A stretch of DNA of 64,000 bases from a virus. A program made the position numbers and the translations under genes. Every line of letters starts with the position of its first letter. Position 1 is the first letter of the stretch. Under the pieces are notes generated by a model. The model was given only the letters and a program-made list of their open reading frames with translations, ran no database searches and was not told the origin of the DNA. The stretch covers positions 32,001 through 96,000 of the IMG/VR virus record IMGVR_UViG_3300031715_000001. One strand, written 5' to 3'. This document shows positions 451 to 64,000 of this stretch, in pieces.

Positions 451-1394
451 TAATTAGGCCTCAAGTTTTGTACGTCTCGCGCCAATCTGGCATATGGCGC
501 GTTGGGGATCAGCCACCCTTCATCCCTTGTGGGCGACCGGTGAATGATCGCCGGCCTAGCCCATTTGCGTTGAAAGTTTTCCCATTCTGGACCGGGTCGG
601 TGCTTCTCCGCGCTTTGCGTTTCCGGTTGCCAAAGCATCGCGTGTGGCGTGAAGCCGATCGCCACCATGTCGCTGAGCCTTTTCTCCGCGAGCGTGAACG
701 TGTCCTTGGGATAGCCGATCAGCACATAACACCGTAGCCGATGCGAGCAGGCCGTAAATCCCGCTGCCAGCATCCGATCAGCAGCACTCTTCAGCGTTTC
801 GAATGGGTCTCCGGGATCATAAGCGAAAAAACAATTCGGTCGCGGCTTCAAGTCCGCGAGTAGCCCGACCTGATAATCCTGGAGGGCTAAAGCTTCTAGG
901 CCGCCGGTGAATTCGACACGCCGCCCTTGACGCGCCAGCATGGCGAACACCGCACGCACATGAGGTTCTGGGCAGGCGAGCAGGTTATCGTCGAGAATGT
1001 TCCAACCGTCCTGGATTTGGAGCAATCGCGGAACTGGGTCACGCTTCCAGACTGAACAAAACCAGCAACGCCTCGGGCAGCCACGAGATGTAAAAGTGTA
1101 GCCATGCTTGATGTATCGGCCAGGAACGAACTCGCGACCAGGATCGCCGTATGCAACGCCGCCAATCTTTACTGGCGCGATATGCGTCCATTGCTCCGCT
1201 AAAGTCTCCGCCTTGGGCTTGTCTAGCGTGAAGGTGACATCCAGATGAACTTCGTCGACCCCGGAGAAGGCTTCGGGGAAAAGATTCGGCGGCGGACCGT
1301 AGAAGGCCAGCGCATCATCAGGCGTCGCCTTGTTCCTTCGCGGAAACACGCGGGCCAATTTACGCTCCGAACTTTCCAGTTGAACCAAAGCCAA
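450..1394 (-). CDS. Radical SAM protein (cargo of hairpin cassette 473-1438)
   Basis: FTSRGCPRRCWFC (CxxxCxxC), ILDDNLL and CYVLIGY motifs. Track ORF is 450..1505; the likelier start is TTG 1394, after the GGGGGAG SD supplied by the element. Confidence 0.85.
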   Translation of the reverse strand: MALVQLESSERKLARVFPRRNKATPDDALAFYGPPPNLFPEAFSGVDEVHLDVTFTLDKPKAETLAEQWTHIAPVKIGGVAYGDPGREFVPGRYIKHGYTFTSRGCPRRCWFCSVWKRDPVPRLLQIQDGWNILDDNLLACPEPHVRAVFAMLARQGRRVEFTGGLEALALQDYQVGLLADLKPRPNCFFAYDPGDPFETLKSAADRMLAAGFTACSHRLRCYVLIGYPKDTFTLAEKRLSDMVAIGFTPHAMLWQPETQSAEKHRPGPEWENFQRKWARPAIIHRSPTRDEGWLIPNAPYARLARDVQNLRPN

Positions 1395-1438
1395 CGCTAG
1401 TCTCCCCCAGCGCCGCAACTCCAGGGCGGCGCGAAACG
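473..1438. mobile_element. Hairpin-bounded cassette 1 (radical SAM gene) between xis and int
   Basis: Left CGTCTCGCGCCA-ATCTGGCATA-TGGCGCGTTGGGG (473-507); right inverted copy 1404-1438. Outer flanks GTTTTGTA and TACAAAAC are also complementary. Confidence 0.7.
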
Positions 1439-1467
1439 TACAAAACCGTTCTTGAAATTCATTCGCA

Positions 1468-1869
1468 TCAGGAGGCCACTTTGTTTCTGGCGATCCAGTT
1501 ATCAAGATCCTGGATGTCGAGTCTGGTTACTTTAATCTTCGGTGGCTTTACGGCCCGTAATTCCTCCGAGGCGATCATGTTGTAGATTGTCGGAACGCTA
1601 AATCCGAGGTAGGTCGCCGCCTCTTCCACAGTCAACAATCTTTTGTTCGTGGCCTCGCTCATGTTGAGCGCTTTTTTTACGCCGGCTTCGGCGGCACGAG
1701 CGATGATCTCCTCGAAAGCATCGTAGAGACCTGTTGGACGCGCGTTACCTTTGGGCTGACCGTTGCGGCCGCGCTTGGTCTCTCGCACCAGCACCTCACC
1801 ATGATACTCGGGAGTCGAAGCGCCTGACGACTCGGATGACGGCGGAGCTGAACCGGAACTGCGGTCCAT
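1468..1869 (-). CDS. xis: Excisionase-family HTH protein
   Basis: LLTVEEAATYLGFSVPTIYNMIASEEL...DLDNWI; upstream of the integrase. True start probably internal. Confidence 0.8.
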   Translation of the reverse strand: MDRSSGSAPPSSESSGASTPEYHGEVLVRETKRGRNGQPKGNARPTGLYDAFEEIIARAAEAGVKKALNMSEATNKRLLTVEEAATYLGFSVPTIYNMIASEELRAVKPPKIKVTRLDIQDLDNWIARNKVAS

Positions 1870-1944
1870 GCAAGAACCTTCTTCCTACGCCCCTCCCCAG
1901 GGGAAGTTTATTTCAGCCATTGCGCGGTCTTTATGCCGCGTCTT

Positions 1945-2133
1945 CTACTTTGTCAAACACTGCAAGGCCCCGATCGGGTCCACGAAACACGTATCTTGAG
2001 AGAGCGACTGGCTTAAAAGTACAGCGATGAGACCCAGCAGAATTGCTGGTACCGACGTGATTAACCAGAGTTGAAAGTTTGAACGACGCTCCAGCCAATG
2101 CGCTAGTTTCGATGTCTTTTCCGAGAGCATCAT
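1945..2133 (-). CDS. Small membrane protein
   Basis: One hydrophobic helix; start overlaps the upstream stop. Confidence 0.5.
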   Translation of the reverse strand: MMLSEKTSKLAHWLERRSNFQLWLITSVPAILLGLIAVLLSQSLSQDTCFVDPIGALQCLTK

Positions 2134-2591
2134 ACAACAGCCGATTCTTCCATTTTCCCGTTTCGCGCGCTCCTGTCAACGCGCGCGTTGAAGATTGCGG
2201 GCTCTTCCCGAGCGCTCCGCTCATTATCCCGGAGTCTCAGTTCCGCCCGGACCATAGGAATCAAGCGGCAGCGGCGCTCGGCATCGTCTTTCCCTAGGGA
2301 GCCAAAGGCGCGTTCAGCTTCGCCAGCTCCTTCCAACATGCGCGCTCGACATAGATGATCGAGGAAGCGAGCAAATTCTGGATTATTCTGGTATTCTCTA
2401 ACGAAGGCGACGCCAGCGGCATAGGCCGGTCGCAAAGCGTGTGATGCGGTGCGGCTTCCGATTAAGCAGCAGCAACTATAGAAACCGAGCTTGCCATCCT
2501 GGGCGTGGGCGAGTAACGCAGCCAACCAGGAATCCGGTCCGGATCTCAGCCAGGCGCGGATAGGAATCTTGAGTTCTTGAATTCTGGTCAC
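2130..2591 (-). CDS. Hypothetical protein, paralog of 32641-33123
   Basis: Shares LRSGPDSWLAALLAHAQDGKLGFYSCCC with 32641-33123; its 3' end reads into the element at 2159-2190. Confidence 0.7.
   Translation of the reverse strand: MTRIQELKIPIRAWLRSGPDSWLAALLAHAQDGKLGFYSCCCLIGSRTASHALRPAYAAGVAFVREYQNNPEFARFLDHLCRARMLEGAGEAERAFGSLGKDDAERRCRLIPMVRAELRLRDNERSAREEPAIFNARVDRSARNGKMEESAVV
2159..2190 (+). repeat. Hairpin element (no clear partner)
   Basis: CGTTTCGCGCGC-TCCTGTCAAC-GCGCGCGTTG. Confidence 0.75.
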
Positions 2592-3249: not shown

Positions 3250-3286
3250 AACTTGATCTACGCTTATCTACGCCTAGACATGGAAC

Positions 3287-3388: not shown

Positions 3389-3847
3389 GTGCCTAAAAAA
3401 TCCGCGCTCCCGCCTGGTATGGTGATGCTGAGTGCCGAGGTACCAGAGAGCCTGCGAAGGCGACTCAATGGAATTGCCGGCAATCAAGGTATCGCCGCCA
3501 AAGATATCGTCACCGAAGCGCTGGAGCAATGGCTGTCCCTGGGAGCGGAAAAAAATATTGACTCCTCTGTAACAAACGATCAGAATAAGTCGTTGATTAT
3601 TCCTCAGCAATTGTTCGGGGAATTAGCGCAACAATTAGCTAGTACTATTTCACGTTCGATTCGCGAAGTTATGCGTGAGGAGCTGAAGGCTTTTTCGACG
3701 GGACCGGGCTCGCATGAAAGTAGTAACACTGCCGCAAAAGCGCTTGCCTCAGCGGAAAAGGCTCGTATTGCAAGAGACTCTGCTCGGAATCTTGGAGTCC
3801 CAAAGTCTAGTAGACGAAGCAAAGGCTCAGGTCTTAAAAGAGCTTGA
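3389..3847 (+). CDS. Ribbon-helix-helix regulator (candidate repressor)
   Basis: MLSAEVPESLRRRLNGIAGNQGIAAKDIVTEALEQWL is an RHH pattern. Confidence 0.65.
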   Translation: MPKKSALPPGMVMLSAEVPESLRRRLNGIAGNQGIAAKDIVTEALEQWLSLGAEKNIDSSVTNDQNKSLIIPQQLFGELAQQLASTISRSIREVMREELKAFSTGPGSHESSNTAAKALASAEKARIARDSARNLGVPKSSRRSKGSGLKRA

Positions 3848-3941: not shown

Positions 3942-4237
3942 TCCCGCACACTACCCCACGCATCCCGGTCCGCCGGCGCTCCCCGGAGGGCGAACGGCCC
4001 AGAGTCAACAGCCTACGTTCCGTAGTTGAGAAGAGCCTCGATTCCAAAAAACACCAGGACTCCAGTACTTCCGGTAACTTCAGTAACTCTAGTACCCCAA
4101 TATGGGCGACTCCAGTTCGGACTTCGAAGTTCCAGTAAGGTATTACTTCTCTCTTACTGAAAAATAAAAGCTAGCTAGCTAAGCTGAGCCTCAAAGTTCT
4201 CATGAGAAAAGAAAGGCAACGCAACGCAAGATCAGCT

Positions 4238-4369
4238 CGTCCGCACCCTCCTGTCAACGGGTGCGAGCACTCATGTCGGGGGGCCCGTGCAGTCCGGTCA
4301 TGTGCACGCAGATCCGGGTTTTCGGGCGCGAGTCCCCAACGTGCCGCAACTCCAGGGCGGCACGAGACG
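4238..4369. mobile_element. Minimal, gene-less hairpin cassette
   Basis: Left CGTCCGCACCC-TCCTGTCAAC-GGGTGCG (4238-4266); reverse TGACCGGACTGC (4289-4300); right CCCCAACGTGCCG-CAACTCCAGGG-CGGCACGAGACG (4334-4369). Confidence 0.6.
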
Positions 4370-4428
4370 ATGGAAATCCCAAATAAACTTGCTTGCAATC
4401 GGAAATTAACAGGGGTAAAATTTATTCC

Positions 4429-5150: not shown

Positions 5151-5193
5151 CGACTATTCAGAGCTTTCTTCCGTCTCGTGCTGAACTGAGGTT

Positions 5194-5520
5194 TCAGCAC
5201 GTTGGGGACTCGTTCTTTTGAACGCCCGAGCGGAAATGGGCGATCTTCTCGAAACAGTATTGATGGAATTGGGCCTGCTCCATCGCTTTTCCTTCACCCC
5301 GAAATAAGATCATCGGTATGCGATCCCGGCATAGATCGCAATCATCACAGTATTCCGAATGTTCGTCCCATCTCGGGTCATCTTCTGCGACACCAATGGG
5401 AAGGTCACAGAAGGCGCAGCGGCACTCCGGATCGGTGCAGCCGGCATTCCCGCAGGAGCCTCGCTTCGACCAGCGTATAGCCGCGATGTAGGCGGGATGA
5501 ATCGTGAAACCTGCGATCAT
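5194..5520 (-). CDS. Cys-rich hypothetical protein (cargo)
   Basis: Several CxxC motifs; ATG 5520 coupled to the upstream stop; ends inside the element. Confidence 0.6.
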   Translation of the reverse strand: MIAGFTIHPAYIAAIRWSKRGSCGNAGCTDPECRCAFCDLPIGVAEDDPRWDEHSEYCDDCDLCRDRIPMILFRGEGKAMEQAQFHQYCFEKIAHFRSGVQKNESPTC

Positions 5521-5813
5521 CGGAGTACCGGGCGTCGCTTTGGTAGCCGGCGGATTTCTTCCTGCAAACGCGAGATCTCCGTCCACAGGGCCTCATTGCG
5601 CTTGAGCATCTCGATACCATATTCGGGGATAACGAAGAGCTCGTCGGTCAGCAGATTTGTGAGCAACAGACTTCCACAAAGTCCGCAAATGTAGGGCGCG
5701 AATTGGGGCACCGTGTTCGGTACTTTCCCCCAGGGCACCGCTGCCAGAGCATCGGGTTCGCCGTCACATTTGGGGCACGGATACATATAAACGAAGGGGC
5801 GGCCTAAACTCAC
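5517..5813 (-). CDS. Zn-ribbon protein (cargo)
   Basis: CPKC...CGLC. Confidence 0.6.
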   Translation of the reverse strand: MSLGRPFVYMYPCPKCDGEPDALAAVPWGKVPNTVPQFAPYICGLCGSLLLTNLLTDELFVIPEYGIEMLKRNEALWTEISRLQEEIRRLPKRRPVLR

Positions 5814-6061
5814 AGTAGTTCAACTTCGATCGTATCTCCCGGCGCTGTAGTCATGACCAGAGTTAATTCATCTACCCGGTCAATAACCGCCGCAATCTTC
5901 TGCTTGGCCCGCTCATCGCCTCGCCCAAAGAAATCGCTCATGATACCGAGAATGTCCTGCTTGGCGATATGGGGAACAGTGACGCGGAGACGTAGTTTCT
6001 TGTTCTGACCTGGCGCGTTCAGTATCCACGCGAAGGCAATCAACGCCAAACGTCGGGTCAT
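5810..6061 (-). CDS. Hypothetical protein (cargo)
   Basis: SD GGGGGAGAGG comes from the element end. Confidence 0.55.
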   Translation of the reverse strand: MTRRLALIAFAWILNAPGQNKKLRLRVTVPHIAKQDILGIMSDFFGRGDERAKQKIAAVIDRVDELTLVMTTAPGDTIEVELL

Positions 6062-6112
6062 AGCATCCTCTCCCCCAGCGCGGCGACTCCAGGGCCGCGC
6101 GAAACGTTCAAT

Positions 6113-6508
6113 TCATTTCCTTCTGACCGTAACCAGACAATTCATTCGACTCAGATCATGTCCCGGATACTGGTTTAATTCGCCGGCGAGTTCGTTATAG
6201 TCAGAGCAAAGACTTCGCCATTCCCGCATGGCTCTTACTGCTGTGGCATTGGATCGTTGGGTATTTGAATTCGCTTCATCGACCAGTTTACGGAAGGATC
6301 CGACAGTTGCTTCGTTGCGGGCCATTACTTCGTCAACCTGCTTGTTGAGCCCGTCGAACTTCCCGTTCAGCTCCTTGAATAGCCTGCCGTATTCAACGAC
6401 CTCGTGCGTGAGCGGCCGCACTTCAATCCAGTTGCAGAGGTTCCAGCCCATGAATAGCCAGGCTATGGAGCTTGTGAAATATCGGAAGAGACCAAACCGG
6501 GAACTCAC
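6113..6508 (-). CDS. Membrane-anchored coiled-coil protein
   Basis: N-terminal TM helix followed by a heptad-like region. Confidence 0.5.
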   Translation of the reverse strand: MSSRFGLFRYFTSSIAWLFMGWNLCNWIEVRPLTHEVVEYGRLFKELNGKFDGLNKQVDEVMARNEATVGSFRKLVDEANSNTQRSNATAVRAMREWRSLCSDYNELAGELNQYPGHDLSRMNCLVTVRRK

Positions 6509-7733: not shown

Positions 7734-7764
7734 AAACGGATCGTCCGGTCATCGGCAGCCTCTT

Positions 7765-7796
7765 CACCGCGCCGTATGCCAGATCGGCGCGAGGCG
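7765..7796 (-). repeat. Hairpin element
   Basis: Minus strand CGCCTCGCGCCG-ATCTGGCATA-CGGCGCGGTG; loop identical to the 473 copy. Confidence 0.7.
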
Positions 7797-7809
7797 AAAG
7801 AGTGCTTCA

Positions 7810-8037: not shown

Positions 8038-8615
8038 AACTTCGCCTCGAGGGTGGCTTTGGCGGCGAGGCAGATGGCGAGCGGGGCGGTGGCTGCGAAC
8101 GCTTGATAGTGAGGCTCGTCGTCGTCAGTCTTTGAGAAACAAGTGTGCCAATCGTCAGTCCAGTGAGCAGCGGGCCGCTCGGTTGTAGAGGCTGCATTCA
8201 CGGTGGCATGCCAGCCCAGTTCCCTCATCCGCTCCACCACGCTCCAGGCATCAGAGATTCCAGTTGAAAATCCGGGACATAAACGGGAATTGCCTTTCTC
8301 GTCGCGCCAATGGGAATTTAGCGCAACCCACCCACCGAGCATCATCGTCCCGCGAGGCACGAACCGCCAGCCAAGGCAATGCTCAGCAATCCAGACATCC
8401 AATTCTTCGCCCGGAGCGCCGCCATCGACCGAAGACGGGTGCCCCAACTTATCCGCAGGATCGGCCAGGGGAATCCAGGAACGGTCTACTTGTGAGCGGA
8501 CAAGATCGGGCTCTGAGGATGCCCCTACCCGAGGCCGGGCATCCTTGGATGCTAGTGGTCGGGACAAAGCCGAATCTTTCCCGGCCGACGTCGTCATATC
8601 ATCTTCATGTTTCAT
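8034..8615 (-). CDS. Phage ABA-sandwich (BC1872-like) protein; true start probably near 8410
   Basis: LDVWIAEHCLGW...FSTGISDAWSVVERM...APLAICLAA. The 5' part of the ORF overlaps the long element. Confidence 0.65.
   Translation of the reverse strand: MKHEDDMTTSAGKDSALSRPLASKDARPRVGASSEPDLVRSQVDRSWIPLADPADKLGHPSSVDGGAPGEELDVWIAEHCLGWRFVPRGTMMLGGWVALNSHWRDEKGNSRLCPGFSTGISDAWSVVERMRELGWHATVNAASTTERPAAHWTDDWHTCFSKTDDDEPHYQAFAATAPLAICLAAKATLEAKL
8417..8480 (-). repeat. Long-form element core (partial)
   Basis: CGAAGACGGGTGCCCC..CTTATCCGCAGGA..GGCC..ATCCAGGA, shared with the 29938 and 48711 copies. Confidence 0.65.
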
Positions 8616-9745
8616 GGCACGATACCTCGCATCAGTTGATCAAGCGTTTGATGCTCCCAAAGCGGGATTTCTGATGTCACGCCATAGGCATGTACCTTCT
8701 CGTGGCTCCATCCGAGCCCGGAAATGAGCGCGTTACGAGCGGCGTTAACGTCCCGCTCGTGGTGAGCACCACAGGCCCCGCAGTACCATTCCCTTACCTT
8801 GAGTCCTGCTAAGCCTATTGGACCAGTTAAGGCCCCACAGGTAGAACAGGTCCTCGTGGAATTCCGATTCTCGGGGAAGATCAGTTCCGTACCGCCGATA
8901 AGGCTCTTGTACGAAAGCATGATCCTCAACCCGCCGTGGCCACTATCGCCAACGGATTTTCCAAAACGCTTCGCTATCGCCCGATGATTATCCTTGAGAA
9001 AACAGATCGTCTTGTTCTCCGCTACTAACCGGCGCGACAGCTTGTGGTTCCGATCCCTGCGGCGATTCTTGGCCCGCTCCTGTAAACGATTGGCTAGATG
9101 CCTATTCCAGCCGCGTTGGGCTTGTCCAAATCGCTTCTCGATCTTTCTGAATTCCCGCGGGTGCGATAGCTTTTCGCCGGTACTCAGCGTGACCAGATCT
9201 TTGAAGCCGGGATCAATACCGACGCTAGCTTCGGCGATCCGCCCGATAGCTTTTGGCTGAGCATCGATAAACAGACACAGATACCAGCCGGAAGCGCGTT
9301 TGACAATCCGCCCGCACTTGATTCTGCCCTCAGGAATCCATTGCTTGTGAAAGCCCACCCGTCCAATTCCCTGAATTCCGATCTTGCCGTCCTTGGGACG
9401 CCTCATCGGATCGGGGAACGGAATGGAGTTGAGCGGACGGCGCATTCCTTTAAGTCTCGGCTTGCGCGCCAACCCCTTGAAACAGCGCTGCCACGACATG
9501 TGAACGGTCGAGAGCACCCCCTGTATCGTGTGGCTGGGAATGCCCAAACGCTCACAGTGCCCTGCCAATAGATTGTGGAAGTCTCGCGCCGAAAAGTAAA
9601 TCTTATCTCGCGCGTTTAGCTCGATCTTCCGTAATCCGAAGTTCCAGACCGATCCAAGTATAGGAAGCCAGGAAGACAGAAGCTTCTCCTGTCGCCGATT
9701 CAGCCTGAGCTTGAGTTGATATTGAATCACTGTACTGACGATCAT
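8612..9745 (-). CDS. tnpB: TnpB-family RNA-guided nuclease (IS200/IS605 OrfB), no adjacent TnpA
   Basis: N-terminal YQLKL helix; VGIDPGFKDL (RuvC-I); STRTCSTCG...WYCGACGAHHERDVNAARN (Zn finger and RuvC-III). Confidence 0.9.
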   Translation of the reverse strand: MIVSTVIQYQLKLRLNRRQEKLLSSWLPILGSVWNFGLRKIELNARDKIYFSARDFHNLLAGHCERLGIPSHTIQGVLSTVHMSWQRCFKGLARKPRLKGMRRPLNSIPFPDPMRRPKDGKIGIQGIGRVGFHKQWIPEGRIKCGRIVKRASGWYLCLFIDAQPKAIGRIAEASVGIDPGFKDLVTLSTGEKLSHPREFRKIEKRFGQAQRGWNRHLANRLQERAKNRRRDRNHKLSRRLVAENKTICFLKDNHRAIAKRFGKSVGDSGHGGLRIMLSYKSLIGGTELIFPENRNSTRTCSTCGALTGPIGLAGLKVREWYCGACGAHHERDVNAARNALISGLGWSHEKVHAYGVTSEIPLWEHQTLDQLMRGIVP

Positions 9746-9863
9746 GCTAACATAGCGCGGGCAAGTACGCAAGAGAAAAAGACACTCCGCGCCCGAGATT
9801 AATACTGGTGGAACTCCCCATTGACTATGGGTAGTTAGGCGGGTAAGCTAGCAGGGGAGGGGA

Positions 9864-10100
9864 ATGAAGAAGATACGGAAGAATCCGGCGGCTGTTGCGT
9901 TAGGTAAACTCGGTGCGAAAAAGGGTGGGGAAGCTCGCGCTCGAAGCTTAACCGAACAGGAGCGGCGCGAGATTGGGAAGGCGGGCGGAAAAGCGCGGGC
10001 TAAGAAGATGACCAAGCGGCAGCGCTCGGACAGCGCCCGGAAGGCGGCGGCGGCGCGGTGGGGAAAAAAAGGCCTGAATGGGAAAAGCAGTAAAGGCTAA
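9864..10100 (+). CDS. KGG-repeat basic protein
   Basis: KNPAAVALGKLGAKKGGEARA...KAGGKARA...AAAARW; TTGACT/TAAGCT promoter and GGAGG upstream. Confidence 0.75.
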   Translation: MKKIRKNPAAVALGKLGAKKGGEARARSLTEQERREIGKAGGKARAKKMTKRQRSDSARKAAAARWGKKGLNGKSSKG

Positions 10101-10356: not shown

Positions 10357-10413
10357 CGCGTATAAAACGGAACGCCGAGGTATCGGACAATCTTCACCGC
10401 GGCATATTACAGA

Positions 10414-11148
10414 TTGCCGCGAGACGGAGGACAAGAAAAAGTGACTGGCAAAAGCTTAGTGTTTTTGTGCTGTGCGATCGCGCACACACAACCACTCGTC
10501 AACTCTCTCGTAGTCCGATCGGTAACGGTGACACCCACCGAAATCAGCGCGGACCTACTCAACACATCCGGCCTAAGCATCACCGCTGGATCGATCCAGC
10601 TCACCACCACCACCGAAACGCAACAGCCCACGGTACAGAAGCTTTCGTTTGAATTGATCTGGAGCACCAATCTGGACGACTTGCGGGCGCCCTACGCAGC
10701 CAAATACCCGGCGAGTATGCAATTTGGCCCTATCCTTCCCAATGCGGTTTATCACTGGCGGCATCCCAACACCAACCCGCCCGCGAAAACCGCCGACGTA
10801 AAAGTGACCGCGGTGATCTTTTTGGGCGGCAAGGAAGAGGGCGATCCGCTGCGTACCATCCCGCTATTCGTGGCGCGCGCGCAGATGACCGGCGAATTAA
10901 CTTATTGGGCCAAGGCCATCGATTCCGTCCACACGCTGGCCCAGCTCGAAACCTTGCTCAGCCATCCGCGAACGCCGGCCGACGCGACTACGGCGGCCGT
11001 GATTCTTAGTACGCTGCGCAGCGTGCCCGCATCCGTGAGCGCTGGGGTGATGACCGAAGGAGCGGGTTTGAACTACGTCCAGGTATATCTAAAGCGAATG
11101 CTGTCCACGTTGGAAGTCGAATCGGTCCGCAAAGGAGGCCAGCAATGA
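10414..11148 (+). CDS. Putative exported protein
   Basis: Hydrophobic N-terminal region; coupled to the next gene. Confidence 0.55.
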   Translation: MPRDGGQEKVTGKSLVFLCCAIAHTQPLVNSLVVRSVTVTPTEISADLLNTSGLSITAGSIQLTTTTETQQPTVQKLSFELIWSTNLDDLRAPYAAKYPASMQFGPILPNAVYHWRHPNTNPPAKTADVKVTAVIFLGGKEEGDPLRTIPLFVARAQMTGELTYWAKAIDSVHTLAQLETLLSHPRTPADATTAAVILSTLRSVPASVSAGVMTEGAGLNYVQVYLKRMLSTLEVESVRKGGQQ

Positions 11149-29707: not shown

Positions 29708-29723
29708 GCTTTTTCCTTTCGTG

Positions 29724-30035
29724 CGTCTCGTGCGCTCCTGGAACCCGCGCACGTTGGGGATTAGTTATTTCGTATCGTCAGCAGCGCATGGAAACTGGTG
29801 CTCTGGAAACTCGGCAGGATCGCCGGGATACTCACCACCGCAGTTTTCGCAGTAGGTGACCGTCTCGTACGAGTCGGCCACGTCAGGAGGCCCACCAGCA
29901 CGCTGACTCTTCCATTTATGCTCCATCTCGCCAGTCTCCCACGTGCCCGTCGGCATCGAGCGAAGACGGGTCCCCGTACTTATCCGCAGGATAAGGCCGG
30001 GTATCCAGGATGCGAGTGGACGAGGGCACGAAACG
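29724..30035. mobile_element. Hairpin-bounded cassette (short left end, long-form right end)
   Basis: CGTCTCGTGCGC-TCCTGGAACCC-GCGCACGTTGGGG (29724-29759); long form 29938-30035. Confidence 0.7.
29765..29926 (-). CDS. Tiny Cys-containing cargo protein
   Basis: MEHKWK...YCENCG; GGAG SD upstream. Confidence 0.55.
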   Translation of the reverse strand: MEHKWKSQRAGGPPDVADSYETVTYCENCGGEYPGDPAEFPEHQFPCAADDTK

Positions 30036-30055
30036 CACGATAGCCTCAATTCCAT

Positions 30056-32640: not shown

Positions 32641-33123
32641 ATGAATGATTTCGCCCGTTCGATCAAAGAGCCGATCCGTTTCTTTTTGCGATCGGGCCCC
32701 GATTCCTGGTTAGCGGCGCTGCTGGCGCATGCCCAGGACGGCAAGCTGGGGTTCTACAGTTGCTGTTGTTTCGTCGGAAGCCGCACTGCGACGCATGCGC
32801 TCCGACCGGCTTATGGGACCAACAACGCCTTTGTAGAGTCTCTCCATTGTGAGTGGCGGTGGTCTTCCCCACACCATTGGCTGCCTAGTATCGCTGGCTC
32901 CGCTGACCATCTAAAGGAGGCTCGTAAGCAGCCTGGAGGAACGGAAGCTGAAATTGCCTTCAGAGATCTTGGTCTTCGCTATGGAGTGAACGACGATGCA
33001 CTTCGCCGGCGCGTCGTGATTCCCATGATCAAGGCCGAAATGCGGAGACGCGAGAGAGCAAGCGAATCCCCAACGCACGCGGGCTCCAGGAGCGTGCGAA
33101 ACGAGCCAGTATTGACCTGTTAA
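32641..33123 (+). CDS. Hypothetical protein, paralog of 2130-2591
   Basis: Shared N-terminal block; reads into the element at 33068-33103. Confidence 0.7.
   Translation: MNDFARSIKEPIRFFLRSGPDSWLAALLAHAQDGKLGFYSCCCFVGSRTATHALRPAYGTNNAFVESLHCEWRWSSPHHWLPSIAGSADHLKEARKQPGGTEAEIAFRDLGLRYGVNDDALRRRVVIPMIKAEMRRRERASESPTHAGSRSVRNEPVLTC
33068..33103 (-). repeat. Hairpin element
   Basis: CCCCAACGCACGC-GGGCTCCAGGA-GCGTGCGAAACG. Confidence 0.75.
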
Positions 33124-44151: not shown

Positions 44152-44182
44152 TTAAAAAAGAATGAAGGTCTCAGACTTGGAA

Positions 44183-44708: not shown

Positions 44709-44716
44709 GAAGAAAG

Positions 44717-46667: not shown

Positions 46668-46741
46668 TTAGGTTATGGTGCGTCTTGCGCCCTCCTGTCA
46701 ACGGGCGCAATGGAGAGGGGATGGTTTACCCGGCGGTCCGT

Positions 46742-47023
46742 TTATTGTGCGGCGGCCGCAACACCGGAGTAAGGCACGGCCCGGAGCGCGAATCCCAGTT
46801 CAGGAAACAGTTTCTCCTTCACGGCTTCCGCATCCAACTTGCGCGCGAAGCGCAGCGCATCGGCTCGCACTCGCGTAAAGGAATCCTTCTTCAAGCCGCA
46901 TCCGGACCAGTACACTTGATCGCCTTCGATAATCCAGCCGAGTTCGGCCCCAGGGGCGAAAGGCGGCTCATAAGGCGCTGGCTTCTTAGCGGCGCGCTTT
47001 CTCTTTGCGGGTTTCTTTGTCAT
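46742..47023 (-). CDS. Cargo hypothetical protein
   Basis: MTKKPAKRK...ADALRFARKLDAE; stop lies in TAAACGGACCGC. Confidence 0.6.
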   Translation of the reverse strand: MTKKPAKRKRAAKKPAPYEPPFAPGAELGWIIEGDQVYWSGCGLKKDSFTRVRADALRFARKLDAEAVKEKLFPELGFALRAVPYSGVAAAAQ

Positions 47024-47050
47024 TGGCTCGAATCCTGGATAATAGTCAGC

Positions 47051-47383
47051 ATGGCTGATTGTGAAAACTGCGCTGTTCTCCAGGCTCGAATTGACAACCT
47101 TTTGACCCTTCTCCAGGAGCAAATAGCGAAACTTGGAGACCAAACGCTAAAGAGCCCTTCCTGGGAAAGGAGAATGCGGATATTAAAGGCTGTCATGAAC
47201 AATGACGCACCGGAGCGCGGTCAGCTTAGAGAAGACTTAGTGAGGGCGGTTGCTGATCGTGACATGAGTCATATCTTCCACGAATCCTTAGCGATAGCTG
47301 TCGTTGCGGCGCATGAACTCGGCATGACGCCGGAGCACCTCTACAAAGCTGTAAGGCCAATGTGGGAGGCCGAGCATAGATAA
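47051..47383 (+). CDS. Cargo hypothetical protein
   Basis: MADCENC...; stop lies in TAACCGAACTGC. Confidence 0.6.
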   Translation: MADCENCAVLQARIDNLLTLLQEQIAKLGDQTLKSPSWERRMRILKAVMNNDAPERGQLREDLVRAVADRDMSHIFHESLAIAVVAAHELGMTPEHLYKAVRPMWEAEHR

Positions 47384-47462
47384 CCGAACTGCTCGGGCGA
47401 AGATCGCCTTTTGATTGCGTGCGGGTTCCAGGAGCACGCAAGGCGTACCAGAACCTAAATAT

Positions 47463-47957: not shown

Positions 47958-48069
47958 CTCAAGTATTCAATGATCTTTGGGGGTTCACGCTTGTCTCAGC
48001 ACGCGAGGAGAGACTGGGCTTTGGTTCGTGCGCGCTCCGGGCCGTTGGGATTAAGATTGAGCTATCGAC

Positions 48070-48711: not shown

Positions 48712-48835
48712 TGCGCCCGTCGGCCAGAAGCGAAGATGGGTGCCCCTGCTTATCCGCAGGACAAGGCCGGGTATCCAGGATGCGAGTGGACGAGGAGGGC
48801 GCAAAACGGAAATATGGTATACCATACTTCACTTC

Positions 48836-50590: not shown

Positions 50591-50621
50591 GGATCGGAAA
50601 AGCTAGAATTGGGCTTAGGTT

Positions 50622-51013
50622 CGTTTCGCAGCGAACTGAGGTTTCGCTGCGGAGGGGCTGTGAGCAAGAACTTTCCACTGACCGCACGAAAGTACGATCT
50701 TTATGTAGCCTTGGATGAGGCGGTAGAAGTTGGCCGCGTACTATTCGCAGGGCGCAAGCGGCGTTTCGTGATTAAGGAGCTTATGTCTCGCGAGGCGTGG
50801 GATGCCGAAAGAGCCATTCCGCCCCAAGGCGATCCGAAGGGGCGCTGGCTAGGGCCTGGAAAATGTGACGACAAGCCCAATGATGAAAGCCTGAGCTACA
50901 ACCCGTCCGCAGGCATTCCAGAAGAATGCAAATTCTTCTATGGGGCGGACTACCTACCTCAGGACCTCAGGACTAATCCCCAACGTGCCCGTGCTCCGGG
51001 AGGGCACGAGACG
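50622..51013. mobile_element. Hairpin-bounded cassette, antisense
   Basis: Left CGTTTCGCAGCG-AACTGAGGTTT-CGCTGCGGAGGGG; right 50978-51013. Confidence 0.7.
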
Positions 51014-51031
51014 GACCACAGGCCTGATTGA
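50660..51031 (+). CDS. Cargo hypothetical protein
   Basis: GTG after the element's GGAGG; reads through the right end. Confidence 0.55.
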   Translation: MSKNFPLTARKYDLYVALDEAVEVGRVLFAGRKRRFVIKELMSREAWDAERAIPPQGDPKGRWLGPGKCDDKPNDESLSYNPSAGIPEECKFFYGADYLPQDLRTNPQRARAPGGHETDHRPD

Positions 51032-51216
51032 TGATGTGCCCTCGCTGCCGTAGGGAGCTTTCCCTTGGCGAAGTCCACATCGCCTGCTCTCCAGCGATTA
51101 CCATGGCGTGCCCGATATGCCGCGCCGAAAATGACCGTACACGCTCAAAGTGCCATCACTGCGAATCCGAGCTGCATCCCAAGCGGCAGGTTCAGCATGT
51201 GACCACTGATCACTGA
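51028..51216 (+). CDS. Small Zn-ribbon protein
   Basis: CPRC, CPIC, CHHC. Confidence 0.5.
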   Translation: MMMCPRCRRELSLGEVHIACSPAITMACPICRAENDRTRSKCHHCESELHPKRQVQHVTTDH

Positions 51217-51950
51217 TATCTGTTTCCAAGATATACGTTACTTCTTCGGTCTCCCACCGCCCAGTCGAGTTCTCTCTTTAATGGCCGGTCGTTGTTCATC
51301 TTGATCAGTGCGAGTGATCGGATGGCATTGGCTCGCGTGTCTTCCGACATTTGCTGTTCGTTGGGATAGCGCGCGGCCAATTGTACGGCTAAATTGGACT
51401 CGATCATCATCTGGTAGCCGTTGGGATAAGTCAGTTCGGCGTCGCCAGTGGCATCGATTTGCGAAAGCGGCTGCTCGAGATACAACGCTATCTGGTTGGC
51501 ATCGGTCGGAACGAATACCAAGTGCAGGGTACCAAGGGGCGGCTGAGAGCGTTCGTAGTAGAAGCATCTTGGATAACTGATAGTCTGGGTCTTTAATGTC
51601 CAGCCCTGCCATTCATCGAGCGTGAGTGGTTGCATCCGATATTCAGGGTAGGGCGCGTTGGCTGTGACGGTTACGAGTACCCCGGCGCGTTCGATCTGGT
51701 TCGGTGCGACCGGCATATCGAAGTCTCCGCCCGGTCCTACCAGATAATCGCCCTGGTTCGAAACCAGAGGAAACAGCATACGTGCGACGTGCGAGACGGT
51801 GAAGCCGTCGGCGGCTAGTTGATCGACGAAGCGGTTGTAGAGCTGCCGGCATTCCTCGTTCTGATCTGGAGAGAGGATGGTCTGCTCGGTTTTGACAATC
51901 CCTGCGTCTCTAAATGCGCCGTAGAATAATTGAGTGATCGATATGCCCAT
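51210..51950 (-). CDS. Head-tail adaptor (P22 gp4-like)
   Basis: YLVGPGGDF...P..GY...IESNLAVQLAARY. Confidence 0.7.
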   Translation of the reverse strand: MGISITQLFYGAFRDAGIVKTEQTILSPDQNEECRQLYNRFVDQLAADGFTVSHVARMLFPLVSNQGDYLVGPGGDFDMPVAPNQIERAGVLVTVTANAPYPEYRMQPLTLDEWQGWTLKTQTISYPRCFYYERSQPPLGTLHLVFVPTDANQIALYLEQPLSQIDATGDAELTYPNGYQMMIESNLAVQLAARYPNEQQMSEDTRANAIRSLALIKMNNDRPLKRELDWAVGDRRSNVYLGNRYQ

Positions 51951-51984
51951 GAGGATTTAGGAGAAACTGAAATGACGTTAGGAG

Positions 51985-52484
51985 CGTTTCGTGCCGCACT
52001 GAATTAGCGACACGGTCGGAATATGATCATCGTTCGTCTATCTCTGTGGCAAAAGCTAAAGTTACTTTTCGGTTGGTACCTGCAGATCGAGGAATGGCCA
52101 ATCGGTCAGAGTTATTACCAGTACGTGCTAGGGCCTTGGGAAACACCGCGACAATTCAGGAGCCGGTGGCGGTGCGAGCGTTGCGGTGAATATATCGAAG
52201 GTGATCGTGATGGTCATAAGTGTGTTCCGCGTCGGCCTCCGTATAGTTCCTATGTTTACGGTGAAGGTGTTGTGCTCGCTGAGATCCTTAAAGTGGTAGG
52301 CAGGCGGGGTATTCAACTCCGTGACATTCAGAATCTCCCAGGCGTTCTCGAACAGGACTATTCGACAATTCAGGACAGGATTGAAGAATACGAAAAGCAG
52401 ATCGCCGTCCTGGAGACGATCAAATCGTCAAGTGTGCCCGACACAGATCCCCAACGTGCCCGTGCTCCAGGAGGGCACGAGACG
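51985..52484. mobile_element. Hairpin-bounded cassette, antisense
   Basis: Left 51985-52019; right 52449-52484. Confidence 0.7.
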
Positions 52485-52490
52485 GAATAA
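52023..52490 (+). CDS. Cargo hypothetical protein
   Basis: CERC motif and coiled coil; reads through the right end. Confidence 0.6.
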   Translation: MIIVRLSLWQKLKLLFGWYLQIEEWPIGQSYYQYVLGPWETPRQFRSRWRCERCGEYIEGDRDGHKCVPRRPPYSSYVYGEGVVLAEILKVVGRRGIQLRDIQNLPGVLEQDYSTIQDRIEEYEKQIAVLETIKSSSVPDTDPQRARAPGGHETE

Positions 52491-52498
52491 AGTTGAAT

Positions 52499-55811: not shown

Positions 55812-55840
55812 CCGGACTGCCGGGGCGGCGTCCGCTCTTC

Positions 55841-55871
55841 ATTGCGCCCGTTGCCAGGAGGGCGCAAAACG
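55841..55871 (-). repeat. Hairpin element (right end)
   Basis: ATTGCGCCC-GTTGCCAGGA-GGGCGCAAAACG. Confidence 0.75.
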
Positions 55872-55885
55872 AACCAAAGCCTTGA

Positions 55886-56647
55886 TCACTGTCCCGGAAC
55901 TACTGGTGTTCCATCACCCTTAGTAGGTCCAGCTAATGTTCTTGAAGATCCAAATGCTCCACTCAGTTTGTCATTATTGATCTGCTCTAACTTCTGAATT
56001 GCATCCTGATACTGTGCCGTCACTTCCGGGGTGACACTGAACCGGTAAGCGGGAGCTAGTGCGATCGTCAAACCGAGGCGCATCGGTAGGATATATTCAG
56101 TCGGAAAGTAGTTCTCGATCAGCTGCTGCTCGTCGCCTGGGGCAAAGGTGGTCAGCGGATTCCACTGCGCCTGCTTCAGGAATCCGTTGAACTGCGGGAT
56201 GGGCGCGACATTGATGGTCGCAATCGGCACGTTGTAGTCGTAGAAATAATCCGTGGGCCCGTCCGGATCCTGGAGAGTCCTTGTCGTCAGGCTTCCAAAC
56301 TGGGGCCGGGTCAGGATATTCAGCGGCCAGCGGCGCGCGGTTCCGACGATATACCAGACGGCCTGCACGTACACCGGCCTGGTGTAAGTGGGATTCGCGC
56401 CTCCGGTCTCGAAGTTTGGCGCAGCGCCGGCCCCCGGCCCGATCTGATAGCTCCCGACGCCCGCCGTGAGCGGATAAGAGACCTCGGGCACGAAGTTTAG
56501 CCGGAGCCTCGAGGCGGACCAGCTTTGCAGCATATCCGTCTGCGTTCGCATGGCGTGCGCGACACGTTGGCCGGACGGAGTCTGTCCGGGCGTGAGCGCG
56601 CCCACGTCAGAGAGCGAGTCGCTTATGAGGTCGAGTACAGAGGGCAT
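55886..56647 (-). CDS. Second head-tail adaptor (gp4-like paralog)
   Basis: LISDSLSDVG...YQIGPG...L.IALAPAY. Confidence 0.7.
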   Translation of the reverse strand: MPSVLDLISDSLSDVGALTPGQTPSGQRVAHAMRTQTDMLQSWSASRLRLNFVPEVSYPLTAGVGSYQIGPGAGAAPNFETGGANPTYTRPVYVQAVWYIVGTARRWPLNILTRPQFGSLTTRTLQDPDGPTDYFYDYNVPIATINVAPIPQFNGFLKQAQWNPLTTFAPGDEQQLIENYFPTEYILPMRLGLTIALAPAYRFSVTPEVTAQYQDAIQKLEQINNDKLSGAFGSSRTLAGPTKGDGTPVVPGQ

Positions 56648-58533: not shown

Positions 58534-59793
58534 TTACAGCGAGCAGATCAGACAAGCCTTTCTCGATTGGCCAACCAGCGTGCCCAAAAGCATGTCTAGC
58601 CGTGTGACCACCTCGCCCGACATCACATCGGAAGCGCGCCAGACGCGCATCCCGATCTTCATGATCTTCGAGCGCGTGCGCCCGGAGAGTTTGTCGACGT
58701 CGGCCGGAAGCACGAGGTTCGGTGAGGCGTAAACCAGCGCCGATTTGTGCATGGCGATTCCCACCGTGAAAGTGATGCTGGAGATGGCGTTCATCGTGGC
58801 GCCGGTGGGTTGGCCCCAGATGAATACGGGAGCGTTGGCGGCCGGAAGCGCGGAAACGTTGGCGTAAGCGGTGCCGAACTCGATTGCCTCGGTGAGGGTA
58901 ACGGTCACGGTCCCGGTGTTCGAGGAATTACAGGCGGCCGCAACGGTGAAAGCCTGCAGATCGCCTGGATAGACGACACCCAAGACCGGGTGCACCATGG
59001 CGCAGCCGGTAAACTGCAGCTTGTCGCCTTGCAGAAGGACGCCGGTGATGCTGTTCGCAAAACCGGAGAGGTTGATCGAAGTGCCGGATTGATTGGCTCC
59101 AGCAACAAGCGGAACCGCGCCGGTGAAATTACCGGTGGTTTGCTGATAGAGCGCCTGTTCCATGTACCAGGTCGCTCCGCCGAATTCTCCCATCTTGCCG
59201 GCCATCGAACCAGTCCGATAGCGTTCGCTGATTTCGGCGGTGGGGTTGAAGAACGTGCGTCCGGTCGCGGTCGCCTTCTGATCCATCGCGGCGTCGACCA
59301 GGATGTGTCTTACTCCGCCCATGCCGGCGGGCGTTCCACCTTGACTCAGTAGCCGGTGGGCGTCTTGGTAGACATCGAGCGAGGTCGGTACGACGCCCGG
59401 AGTACCTACGAAATTCGAAACGCCGAGCGCCATGGTCTGAGTGGCGGATTTCGCGGCGGCGGCCCCGATGGCGTCCACGTGGGGCTCGAGGACTTGTTCT
59501 TTGAAGTCGTTCAATTCCATCGACAGCATGCGGTCGGTCAAAAGTGAGTCCGAACCGAAGGCGGGAGGAATGACCATTGTGACCAGGCGCTCGTCGATGG
59601 CCTGGGGTTGTGCGCGCTCTCCGCGGCGCGATTGCATGTAAACGGGCAACCGGATGGCGATCGTATCGCCTTTTACCGGAGAATTCGCCCATTGGGGATC
59701 GTAGCGGCCGTCTGCCAATTGCAGGATGACGGAATTCTGGCTATACCGCTCCATCGCTTCGTCGAGGATGATGTCGCTAGTTAATAGAGGCAA
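58534..59793 (-). CDS. Major capsid protein (P22 coat family)
   Basis: KGDTIAIRLP, VGTPG, LQGD, RLDMLLG. Confidence 0.85.
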   Translation of the reverse strand: MPLLTSDIILDEAMERYSQNSVILQLADGRYDPQWANSPVKGDTIAIRLPVYMQSRRGERAQPQAIDERLVTMVIPPAFGSDSLLTDRMLSMELNDFKEQVLEPHVDAIGAAAAKSATQTMALGVSNFVGTPGVVPTSLDVYQDAHRLLSQGGTPAGMGGVRHILVDAAMDQKATATGRTFFNPTAEISERYRTGSMAGKMGEFGGATWYMEQALYQQTTGNFTGAVPLVAGANQSGTSINLSGFANSITGVLLQGDKLQFTGCAMVHPVLGVVYPGDLQAFTVAAACNSSNTGTVTVTLTEAIEFGTAYANVSALPAANAPVFIWGQPTGATMNAISSITFTVGIAMHKSALVYASPNLVLPADVDKLSGRTRSKIMKIGMRVWRASDVMSGEVVTRLDMLLGTLVGQSRKACLICSL

Positions 59794-61161: not shown

Positions 61162-61434
61162 TTTCCTATGTCAAGAGTGAGGCATGAAACGCGGTTTACC
61201 TAGGATTGGCCGGTAATACATGCCGATGTGAATTGGCTTGTATCCGCGCTACTTCCGAGTGCATGACACGCGCGATCAGTCCAATTTCGGAATCCTGGAC
61301 GTGCATGCGATGGTCCCGGCCGTCCCGCCAGCGATGGGAGCCGCATTCCGGACACCGCCGGCACTCCGGGCGTCCATTGCGTTTCTTCCACCAGTGGCGG
61401 CAGATGTGACAAGTACGTAGTAATGAATCGATCA

Positions 61435-61674: not shown

Positions 61675-61773
61675 GGTGTTTTTCCTTCTGCCACTGAGAT
61701 TAAGTACTGCGAAAAACCGTGTTCGGTACTAATTGGAGATGACACGCGGGTTAAAAGCGCATAGCATTGAGCA

Positions 61774-62580: not shown

Positions 62581-62607
62581 AACCGCCCTTGCCGGGGAGA
62601 AGAGGCA

Positions 62608-63033
62608 TTACGCCATCGTCACGCCTTGGAGGTTGACGACTTTCCACTTTCCGTTGTATGCCACTAGCTCGATGCCGCCGCCCGCATTAGCCGCAAACGT
62701 CGCGGTGTTCACATGCGCTGCTCCGTCCTGGAATAGTCCCGTGGCGGTGATAACGTGGGCTTGGGCGGTATCGCTGGTGAAGACCAGCCTGACTCCGTCG
62801 TCCCCATTGGCTGACTGCGCGCCAGCGGTAGGGGCCGGAAGCGTGATGGCGCAGGCCCCGGCGGCGTAGGTGATCACGTAAACCGCCGAAACATGCTGAT
62901 TGATGAGCGCCGTAGAGAGCGGGAGCGGAATTGGGAAATAAGGCACTTGCCCGAGAGCAACCGCCTTGACTACCTTGATGGCATCGTTGGCGATAACACC
63001 GCCATCTTGCTGGACTTTCACATTGAGGGACAT
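62608..63033 (-). CDS. Virion structural/decoration-like protein
   Basis: AITLPAPT...beta-rich. Confidence 0.6.
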   Translation of the reverse strand: MSLNVKVQQDGGVIANDAIKVVKAVALGQVPYFPIPLPLSTALINQHVSAVYVITYAAGACAITLPAPTAGAQSANGDDGVRLVFTSDTAQAHVITATGLFQDGAAHVNTATFAANAGGGIELVAYNGKWKVVNLQGVTMA

Positions 63034-63146
63034 TTTAGATTTCTCCTTTGAATTCGAATTGGGATGAGTAGGGGCTTTGCGGGCGCCACGTCGGCGCAGC
63101 ACGCAGTCTATGGGTTGCTTCATTTATTTCACGAACCGAGATCTGA

Positions 63147-63203
63147 GGGGCACCCATCTTCGGTCGATGCCGCCGAGCGCGTTGGGGATTTGCGGTCCGG
63201 TTA
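63147..63203 (+). repeat. Truncated long-form element plus TAACCGGACCGC
   Basis: GGGGCACCCATCTTCGGTCGATGCCG...GCGTTGGGG. Confidence 0.65.
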
Positions 63204-63488
63204 CCTGGGCTTGGTGGTCCTACAGTTGCAATCGAAGGTGTCCCAGATGGCGCAGTCTTTGTGATGCGTGACCATACCGTGTGCAGCGGCGCGCTCTACC
63301 TGACGCGCCGCCGCTCCCAGAAAAAGCGCTGTCGTGGTGGGGTCTTCTGAAACCGCGATGCCGTGCATGTCGATCTCGCCGTTGCTCATGAAGGCGTGGT
63401 CGTAGCCGGCTGCTTTCAGTTTCAGTTTGATCTCCTGGTATGCATCCGAAGAGACTTCCAGTACCACGTAGGTGTGTGTGTTATGCAT
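63201..63488 (-). CDS. Hypothetical cargo-like protein
   Basis: THTYVVLEVS..AY.EI..KLKAAGYDHAF; stop lies in the submotif. Confidence 0.6.
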   Translation of the reverse strand: MHNTHTYVVLEVSSDAYQEIKLKLKAAGYDHAFMSNGEIDMHGIAVSEDPTTTALFLGAAARQVERAAAHGMVTHHKDCAIWDTFDCNCRTTKPR

Positions 63489-63960
63489 CGTTCCATCCAT
63501 CGCTGTGTTGCTTTTTTACGCGTATAACCGCGTGCGCTTTTCGTCCGCCCGCAATCAACTGAATCAGAGCCGGGGTCGTCAGCTTAGCGCGCTTCGGATC
63601 CGCTTCCCAGAGATTGCAGCAACCCATTGGGTCGATCTTGCCCGGTGTTGCCCCCGGTGACCGCTTATCCACGCGCTTGCAATCGTCGGGCGCTTCTAAT
63701 TCCTCGCAACGCCGGCACCCGAACCCTGGTTTATTCTCGACGTATCCGGTTTCGATTCGGGTCTTGTCGTGATTGCCTTCGATCCGTCCCTTGCTTAGAT
63801 CTTTCCAGTCGTTGCATCCGCCGAATGGCTTCACGTCTTCATCAGACTTTACGTAGTCGGTGCACTTCCCTTTAGAAGAGATGAAGGCACACTCACTACA
63901 GTGCAGTTCGCATCCGGAGGCAAGAATGTACCCGGCTTCTGCTTTCGTGAGTTTTTCCAA
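63481..63960 (-). CDS. Tandem HiPIP-like Cys-rich protein
   Basis: Two CxxC...C...GxCxxW units. Confidence 0.55.
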   Translation of the reverse strand: MEKLTKAEAGYILASGCELHCSECAFISSKGKCTDYVKSDEDVKPFGGCNDWKDLSKGRIEGNHDKTRIETGYVENKPGFGCRRCEELEAPDDCKRVDKRSPGATPGKIDPMGCCNLWEADPKRAKLTTPALIQLIAGGRKAHAVIRVKKQHSDGWNDA

Positions 63961-63972
63961 TGAGGTTTATTC

Positions 63973-64000
63973 CGTCTCGTGCCGCCCTGGAGTTGCGGCA
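63973..64000 (+). repeat. Hairpin element (left end of a cassette continuing beyond the window)
   Basis: CGTCTCGTGCCG-CCCTGGAGTTG-CGGCA, the exact reverse complement of part of 4334-4369. Confidence 0.75.

Follow-up and report, generated by a model that had tools for sequence, protein, structure and literature searches.

A phage-borne variant of CGTC-tagged REP repeats at junctions where accessory genes are gained, lost and exchanged

Repetitive extragenic palindromic (REP) sequences of the CGTC-tagged class comprise families CGTC-1 to -4, which include dRS3/NTS of Neisseria, and are defined by a CGTC (or TGTC/CCTC) tag, an 8-9 bp stem beginning with A-T, a 4-5-nt loop and a CCA-type 3-nt tail (Di Nocera et al. 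2013, PMC3733652). They occur mostly as HH dimers with negligible HT dimers, no transposase is associated with them, and DNA inserted between partners has been noted (PMC3733652). Classical REPs are chromosomal and abundant. Here we describe hairpin units of this architecture in a phage genome, G000, from a 64,000-nt window (bases 32,001-96,000) of the IMG/VR virus record IMGVR_UViG_3300031715_000001, which is linear, 106,688 bp long and 97% complete. A first-pass annotation, made from the sequence of the window alone, had listed about 25 hairpin copies that bracket accessory genes as inverted pairs, and had taken them for a candidate new gene-cassette system moved by a structure-recognizing mechanism. 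By anatomy, the units are a new phage-borne variant of the CGTC-tagged class and not a member of any described family. They are junctions where accessory open reading frames (ORFs) are gained, lost and exchanged between related phages.

The only enzyme known for the CGTC-headed repeat class is Ssn, a small single-strand-specific nuclease that acts in trans (Chenal et al. 2025, PMC11893778). Among phage elements, the closest are the promoter-early stem-loops (PeSLs) of T4-type phages, which reportedly contain a sigma-70-like promoter and an effective terminator, and give mini-circles when nearby PeSLs exchange (Arbiol et al. 2010, PMC2839356; Comeau et al. 2014, PMC4122927).

A covariance model, R1, was built from an alignment of 19 copies on the first-pass list, which aligned easily, and was run on the window and the remaining record. 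Within the window, R1 recovers 22 strong copies (24-63 bits) plus 2 degenerate ones; over the entire record the strong copies number 41, of which 21 are in plus and 20 in minus orientation. Most of the list was recovered as strong, namely the left-type copies at 473, 2159, 4238, 5172, 29724, 44183, 46681, 50622, 51985 and 63973 and the inverted copies ending at 1438, 4369, 6106, 7796, 30035, 33103, 44708, 47445, 51013, 52484 and 55871. The partial copy proposed at 63147 was not recovered by R1, nor was the one proposed to end at 28442. The copy at 48027, already called degenerate, is weak, and so is its partner at 48808, both at 9-10 bits.

The model is specific. At E<=0.001 it gives zero matches in 495 kb from 80 other phage loci, and likewise none in three related phage records, complete or partial (G128, G130, G131). 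No Rfam family reaches its gathering score across the whole window, and permissive filters around one element yield chance-level matches only. Two weak look-alikes lie within a 3151-aa ORF, at 38674 and 39235. The centre of a copy falls inside a confident gene in 2 of the 41 cases, though confident genes cover 75% of the genome.

Each unit consists of an unpaired CGTY tag, one further T (present in >95% of copies), a G+C-rich 7-9 bp stem that begins with C-G or T-A and then G-C, a 9-11-nt loop with CTG, and a purine-rich 3' tail. Typical copies folded as DNA give -8 to -10.6 kcal/mol. The first-pass annotation had described the loop CTG and the CGTY tag as nearly fixed, and indeed CTG is kept in 120-121 of 122 copies and CGT in 114-119 of about 120; the fourth tag base is C in 62 copies and T in 61. 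The 12-15 nt upstream of the tag are weakly conserved, with a nearly invariant T at -5.

The stem changes in a compensatory manner, as had also been claimed. RNAalifold gives a single 7-bp helix for the 19 copies, with compensatory changes in 6 of its 7 pairs. When 123 copies from nine records are taken together, 98.3% of stem cells hold a standard pair as compared with 77% after shuffling, and 190 stem cells are changed on both sides as compared with 51. Neither observed value is reached in 500 shuffles (0/500), and pairing is lost when the partner column is slid by one to three positions. Outside the first stem pair, only 3 cells are G-T in the 123 copies, which argues that the stem is palindromic on either DNA strand and not a helix of RNA only.

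Two types of tail occur. The short type is GTTGGGGA. In the long type (21 copies), a GAAGAG-like run is followed by a conserved CCCGG...GTYCGKTTAT segment, which folds into a second small hairpin in many of them, although RNAalifold finds no structure common to all 21 tails.

The flanks of the unit resemble translation signals on both strands. When a copy lies in sense, its 3' purine run acts as a Shine-Dalgarno sequence and a start codon follows within a few bases. When it lies in antisense, this role falls to the 5' flank, whose reverse complement (CRARACG, then purines) serves the gene on the opposite strand. By home-made gene calls, 54 of the 121 units have a start codon no more than 45 nt away on one side or other, and in 41 of the 121 the stop codon of a co-oriented gene lies at the 5' side, so that the units fill intergenic spacers almost exactly. 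Because a Shine-Dalgarno-like run is present on whichever strand is transcribed, an inserted unit leaves the downstream gene with a translation start signal, and these purine tails on both sides would account for the tolerance of insertions in operons with little intergenic space.

The units sit between genes in either orientation. Orientation alternates along G000, where 29 of 40 neighbors differ (permutation p = 0.006), and the same trend appears in three of four other carrier phages. Spacing depends on orientation. In five genomes the median gap is 420 bp for pairs with tags outward, 1,930 bp for tags inward and 1,590 bp for tandem pairs (Mann-Whitney p = 3e-6), and all 9 pairs with a gap below 170 bp have their tags outward, none being tandem or tags-inward. 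Five of these outward pairs are 'empty' doublets whose units are 18-48 bp apart; in the G000 lineage a small central hairpin lies between the units of empty doublets. Otherwise, the doublets, termed HH when the tags face outward at close range, enclose one to three small ORFs. The partners of a pair are no more alike than non-partners, which argues against a pair being the two terminal repeats of a single transposon, and no long terminal inverted repeats are found around them.

In the window, the first cassette is formed by a short-type unit at 461..514 (+; R1 54.9 bits; DNA hairpin -9.3 kcal/mol, z -3.2) and a unit at 1396..1450 (-; 48.8 bits), which face each other around a radical-SAM domain protein gene at 450..1394 (-; phrog_9298 at 1e-17). 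The 3' purine run of the right unit lies 2 nt ahead of the called start of this gene. Since homologs of the protein end near residue 285, the last ~25 codons of the ORF run into the left unit. A second pair, 5160-6118, has units at 5160..5214 (+; 52.6 bits) and 6064..6118 (-; 42.8 bits), the latter continuing at its 3' end into ATG. The pair 29712-30047 joins a unit at 29712..29766 (+; 58.6 bits) to a long-form element at 29929..30047 (-; 29.6 bits), in which tag and stem surround a ~70-nt inserted module. Cassettes further along are 44171-44225 (+) with 44667-44720 (-), which encloses ORFan cargo of ~440 nt and fills the gap from gene 42622-44151 to gene 44717-45715; 46669-46722 (+) with 47403-47457 (-), around a 133-aa ORFan (46742-47143); 50610-50664 (+) with 50971-51025 (-), around a plus-strand ORF; and 51973-52027 (+) with 52442-52496 (-; the top-scoring copy, 62.9 bits), around a 155-aa plus-strand ORF. 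The degenerate pair comprises 48015-48057 (+; 10 bits) and 48768-48820 (-; 9 bits; long form). A near-empty doublet with outward tags, its units 48 nt apart, is made of 4226-4279 (+; 24 bits) and 4327-4381 (-; 55 bits). The other units are a solitary long-type copy at 2147..2200 (+; 45.7 bits), long-type copies at 7754..7808 (-; 43.4 bits), 55830..55883 (-; 57.5 bits) and 10385..10438 (-; 34.1 bits; absent from the first-pass list), a copy at 33061..33115 (-; 56 bits) upstream of the 3151-aa ORF, and a copy at 63961..64000 (+; 39.7 bits) that is cut by the window end but complete in the genome record.

Other IMG/VR records, labeled G001-G005 and G128-G131 for carriers and relatives, were searched by exact-pattern scans and R1. 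There are 19 copies in G002 (38.6 kb), 21 in G004 (44 kb), 25 in G005 (IMGVR_UViG_3300037116_000081; 86 kb), 3 in G003 (45 kb) and 2 in G001 (a 19-kb fragment). G002-G005 are mutually related, and have in common with G000 only one N-terminal domain of a giant protein and a few scattered genes. Two relatives, G128 and G129, were reached through the coat protein. G129, whose coat protein is 61% identical to that of G000, has 15 copies in 22 kb. On the other hand, G128 is nearer to G000 than G129 is (coat protein 78%) and its 18.8-kb piece covers the homologous head region, but it has no copy. No copy was found either in G130 or G131, which are complete genomes of relatives of the other lineage. 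Thus, the family spans at least two unrelated phage lineages, from soil and peat, and the density in carriers is one copy per 2-2.6 kb. Incidentally, all 25 elements of G005 lie within 42 kb at its start, a region that shows synteny with G004 (44 kb), while the other half has none and contains genes common to G001; G005 may thus be a composite genome, or the record may join two phages in a chimera.

A metagenome scan, in which, as in all metagenome comparisons here, half of each metagenome record was drawn on, gave 115 stretches with elements. None of their contigs exceeds 54 kb, and several, at 35-54 kb, match complete carrier genomes in size. Among 185,579 species genomes there was one true copy, a single one at 1501-1555 of locus L014 in a Bryobacterales metagenome-assembled genome (MAG; CAWAHZ010000002.1). 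It lies between ordinary chromosomal genes, namely 71-aa and 240-aa ORFs, near genes for an ECF sigma factor and a Ser/Thr kinase; phage genes were not detected in the vicinity. This copy may have been left by contact with the host. No copy was found in 120 further Bryobacterales genomes, with only 47-150 candidates scored in each. In these searches, neither a described Rfam motif nor a scattered host REP family, either of which would have spoken against the first-pass claim, turned up.

Comparison of related phages reveals empty and filled states of the same junction. Where two conserved tail-region genes meet, G005 has an outward pair with a 53-aa ORF, whereas G004 has the same pair with ~20 nt between the units. 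A solitary unit in G005 separates genes whose stop and start overlap in G004. Homologs of the genes flanking the cassette 44171-44720 are 2 nt apart in the element-free G128, and a cassette in G129 splits two head genes that lie next to each other in G000 as well as in G128.

Cargo is also replaced between the same ends. At one junction, G004 and two metagenomic relatives with ~93% identical flanks, L087 and L046, agree in the element at either end but hold three unrelated cargos. The cargos diverge from the start codon on one side and from CCCAAC on the other. A third relative at this junction, L067, has the right element only, with no left element and no ORF. The cargo of L046 matches, at 92% identity, an ORF plus element from another G004 locus, and the switch of similarity from one parent to the other, the one crossover that was mapped, is located inside the element. 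When G004 was compared with six close relatives, 19 of 75 homology breakpoints lie within 15 bp of an element as compared with 3.6 expected, a roughly fivefold excess (p < 5e-5). The first-pass annotation had proposed cassette-like units and had suggested looking in relatives for empty sites and different cargo. Inward-facing pairs are indeed the close-range arrangement, and presence/absence and cargo swapping do occur at element boundaries.

The cargo genes tested are ORFans, except for the radical-SAM protein, which has >5000 homologs at 75-85% identity on phage-sized contigs and a close homolog in a Bryobacteraceae MAG. The latter points, though weakly, to the same host group as the Bryobacterales copy. 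The protein is a very common soil-phage gene. Whether this gene moves with its ends was considered and rejected, as the 80 other phage loci with the gene have no element.

The likeness to CGTC-tagged REP doublets drawn at first pass is apt (PMC3733652). In both, an unpaired CGTC-like tag stands at one end of a G+C-rich hairpin, changes in the stem are complementary, the copies are intergenic, HH dimers predominate and tandem ones are negligible. Spacers may hold small stem-loops, DNA is insertable between the partners, and there is no transposase gene. The phage units also resemble the SRM/NTS motifs of Ssn in being CGTC-headed hairpin repeats clustered around genes. The inverted doublet appears to be the unit, as in REPINs, which are said, after work by Bertels and Rainey in 2011, to be moved by RAYT transposases, with REP singletons possibly being remnants of doublets. 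Unlike REPINs, the carriers have no RAYT/Y1 gene, the partners are not specially alike, and cargo ORFs lie between them.

A moving enzyme was searched for in the carriers. No Y1/HUH transposase (PF01797) is found in five carriers and no integron integrase IntI (TIGR02249) in the carriers. GIY-YIG (PF01541), the family of ssnA, is absent from 10 phage records, with positive control genomes. A tyrosine recombinase occurs only in G000 among the carriers, HNH genes in two carriers only, and TnpB only in G000, while G002, G004, G005 and G129 have 15-25 copies without TnpB. Neither TnpB nor the integrase of G000 is flanked by elements as ends. Thus, these searches (HUH, TnpB, tyrosine recombinase, HNH, IntI and GIY-YIG) give no recombinase common to all carriers. 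BLAST and phmmer, all against all, found no protein common to the carriers except an N-terminal domain with an NNNPGNL motif, for which no link to the hairpins was seen. The first-pass statement that no HUH/RAYT transposase or integron integrase is visible in the window agrees with these searches, but a TnpB gene at 8612-9772 (-) had been overlooked.

We lean towards the reading that the elements are REP-like palindromic DNA repeats in phage genomes, whose cargo is mainly swapped by homologous recombination, with new units seeded by host activity on hairpin DNA or by template switching. Homologous recombination between the ~50-bp ends is the most economical account of exchange, because the mapped crossover is in an element, the partners show no special likeness and no enzyme is found. 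Homologous exchange has likewise been proposed for PeSLs (PMC2839356, PMC4122927). Under such a scheme, elements of co-infecting phages would recombine by the ordinary homologous route, the conserved ends acting as portable homology, and the inverted arrangement of the ends would shield the cargo from deletion by direct-repeat recombination. Homology accounts for neither the seeding of new units nor the fact that close pairs always have tags outward. Both may call for an activity in trans on hairpin DNA; new units may be seeded by such a host activity on single-stranded hairpins, or else by template switching. A dedicated mechanism of structure-recognizing insertion, as advanced by the first-pass annotation, is not supported by these results. 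The carriers have no Y1/HUH, GIY-YIG or IntI gene and no common recombinase, the crossover lies inside an element, and 56 of the 75 breakpoints lie away from elements.

Several observations weigh against the reading that we favor. Those 56 breakpoints count against it too. The 185,579 species genomes yielded no host in which the family is present at high copy number, and neither a target-site duplication nor a fixed insertion motif was seen. The hairpin may function in RNA, and the gene calls come from a crude script of our own, which makes the start-codon distances approximate. The anatomy also departs from that of the described repeats. The loop, with its fixed CTG, spans 9-11 nt where CGTC REPs have 4-5 nt, the stem is not A-T-initiated, the tail is GTTGGGGA or the long form instead of CCA, and half of the tags are CGTT instead of CGTC. 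None of the 121 units fits the SRM search pattern (PMC11893778), whose genome-wide matches equal the shuffle expectation.

We file the units outside the described families because their loop, stem ends and tail depart from the CGTC definitions, the SRM pattern does not fit and they do not, so far, form a chromosomal family. They are so far phage-borne, and, unlike CGTC REPs, their doublets hold whole ORFs that are exchanged between phages. Unlike in Ssn systems, no ssnA-like gene is flanked by the elements. To call the system categorically new, on the other hand, would be overstated, since its anatomy is that of a known repeat class.

Regulatory signals at the hairpins were looked for. A canonical terminator was rejected, as the loop of the main hairpin is large and a T run is missing. 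Sigma-70 promoters were rejected for lack of promoter-like enrichment, with a sigma-70-like consensus, although the promoter type of the host may differ. An N4-type hairpin promoter for a virion RNA polymerase, considered because of the 3151-aa ORF, was also rejected, as the 3151-aa protein has no polymerase domain and the 38-44 kb carriers have no such gene.

The best-surviving alternative is that the units are regulatory cassettes of the PeSL type. They would be transcription or translation signals, such as an mRNA-stabilizing 5' hairpin with a ribosome-binding site or a processing site, that are carried by 'morons'; their role in expression would keep them conserved, and shuffling would be a by-product of homology. 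The Shine-Dalgarno runs and start codons at the sense-copy tail and at the reverse complement of the 5' flank suit this alternative, as do the frequency of start codons within 45 nt (54 of the 121 units) and the onset of cargo-specific sequence directly at the start codon. PeSLs are also reported to be small stem-loop motifs with regulatory roles that flank accessory ORFs at points of insertion, deletion and replacement between relatives (PMC2839356, PMC4122927). Nevertheless, orientation is ~50:50 in a genome transcribed almost entirely from a single strand, yet the tag and the loop CTG are conserved strand-specifically. There are hardly any G-U pairs, the main hairpin does not look like a terminator, there is no enrichment of sigma-70-like promoters, close relatives live without any element, and the same 55-nt unit is common to unrelated phages. 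Unlike PeSLs as reported, the phage units have no promoter or terminator consensus, occur in both orientations and in inverted doublets, and are common to unrelated lineages. We regard this alternative as possible but tentative.

A bolder proposal keeps the REP anatomy and makes the doublets a phage-specific cassette platform. The empty pair would serve as a landing pad, and promoterless ORFs would be inserted or exchanged by a hairpin-recognizing activity in trans (a host Ssn-/RAYT-like nuclease or other), with a fixed join between ribosome-binding site and start codon. We think it rather unlikely. If true, the platform would be a functional analog of integrons with inverted REP-type sites, spreading between unrelated soil phages.

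A true integron-like system, in which a recombinase reads the folded hairpin and inserts or excises ORFs at a fixed position, for example at GTT of the 3' tail, appears very improbable. The core of attC sites is GTTRRRY, which the tail GTTGGGG resembles, and attC sites flank the cassette in direct orientation. As in attC, structure is conserved over sequence and the cassettes are promoterless ORFs; the cargo boundaries are sharp, with ribosome-binding site/start codon on one side and CCCAAC on the other, and empty doublets resemble landing pads. However, homology-limited exchange would also give sharp boundaries, the ends are inverted, and IntI is absent, with the tyrosine recombinase confined to G000 and no recombinase common to the carriers. 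The hairpin is also much shorter than attC and has no extrahelical-base architecture.

That the elements are ends of IS200/IS605-type transposons or miniature derivatives moved by TnpA, the two TnpB genes of G000 included, is hardly tenable: those genes, the subterminal hairpins of IS200/IS605 ends and a copy of the ~70-nt module of two long-form elements ~150 nt beyond the 3' end of the window TnpB speak for it, but IS200/IS605 ends lie in direct orientation on one strand whereas the close-range phage pairs are inverted, PF01797 is missing from all five carriers, G002, G004, G005 and G129 have no TnpB, and the TnpB genes of G000 are not bounded by elements in the manner of ends.

REP-type palindromes have been seen as a fixture of bacterial chromosomes. 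A member of the REP architecture is now seen at very high density in phages, with recent gain, loss and cargo exchange visible at ~93% identical flanks. The carriers are therefore a tractable natural system for hairpin movement, with small genomes, many recent events and defined sites. The units offer a concrete mechanism for slotting 'moron' genes between essential phage genes with the translation of neighbors intact. R1 gives a sequence handle on mosaic junctions and swappable ORFs in metagenomic phages, and any enzyme that proved to be involved would be of practical interest as a structure-specific DNA tool.

The remaining features of the genome are as follows. Megablast against annotated phages gave no DNA-level match to G000. 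By the home-made calls, the minus strand carries nearly all its genes. They include a P22-type coat protein (58534-59793), a head-closure protein, a scaffold-like protein and a tyrosine integrase gene that spans the left edge of the window. No tRNA or tmRNA is found.

The window TnpB (8612-9772) has OrfB_IS605 and Cas12f-like TNB domains, and so does a second TnpB outside the window, at 13.6-14.9 kb of the genome. The former scores below the threshold of the codon-usage gene caller, perhaps because its codon usage differs. No TnpA is found anywhere in G000 despite the two TnpB genes.

The structured ~70-nt module is present at six places in the genome, two within the loop of long-form elements and four separate. 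They are 29929-30047, 48729-48795 and 8423-8461 in window coordinates and 3678-3711, 9952-9994 and 10678-10699 in genome coordinates. It may represent another small element, mobile or RNA, that is nested within the hairpin element.

The 3151-aa multidomain protein (33158-42613, -) has FtsK-gamma, histidine-phosphatase and 2'-5' RNA ligase/Acb1-like domains. It may be an ejected multi-enzyme protein, and its Acb1-like part hints at cyclic-nucleotide cleavage. Four unrelated carrier phages have its N-terminal NNNPGNL-motif domain of ~130 aa as a small protein on its own.

Finally, two paralogous genes (phrog_12985) at 51210-51950 and 55886-56647, both on the minus strand, are ~4 kb apart in G000 but adjacent in G128. 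One of them is flanked by two cassettes, which suggests an element-associated rearrangement.

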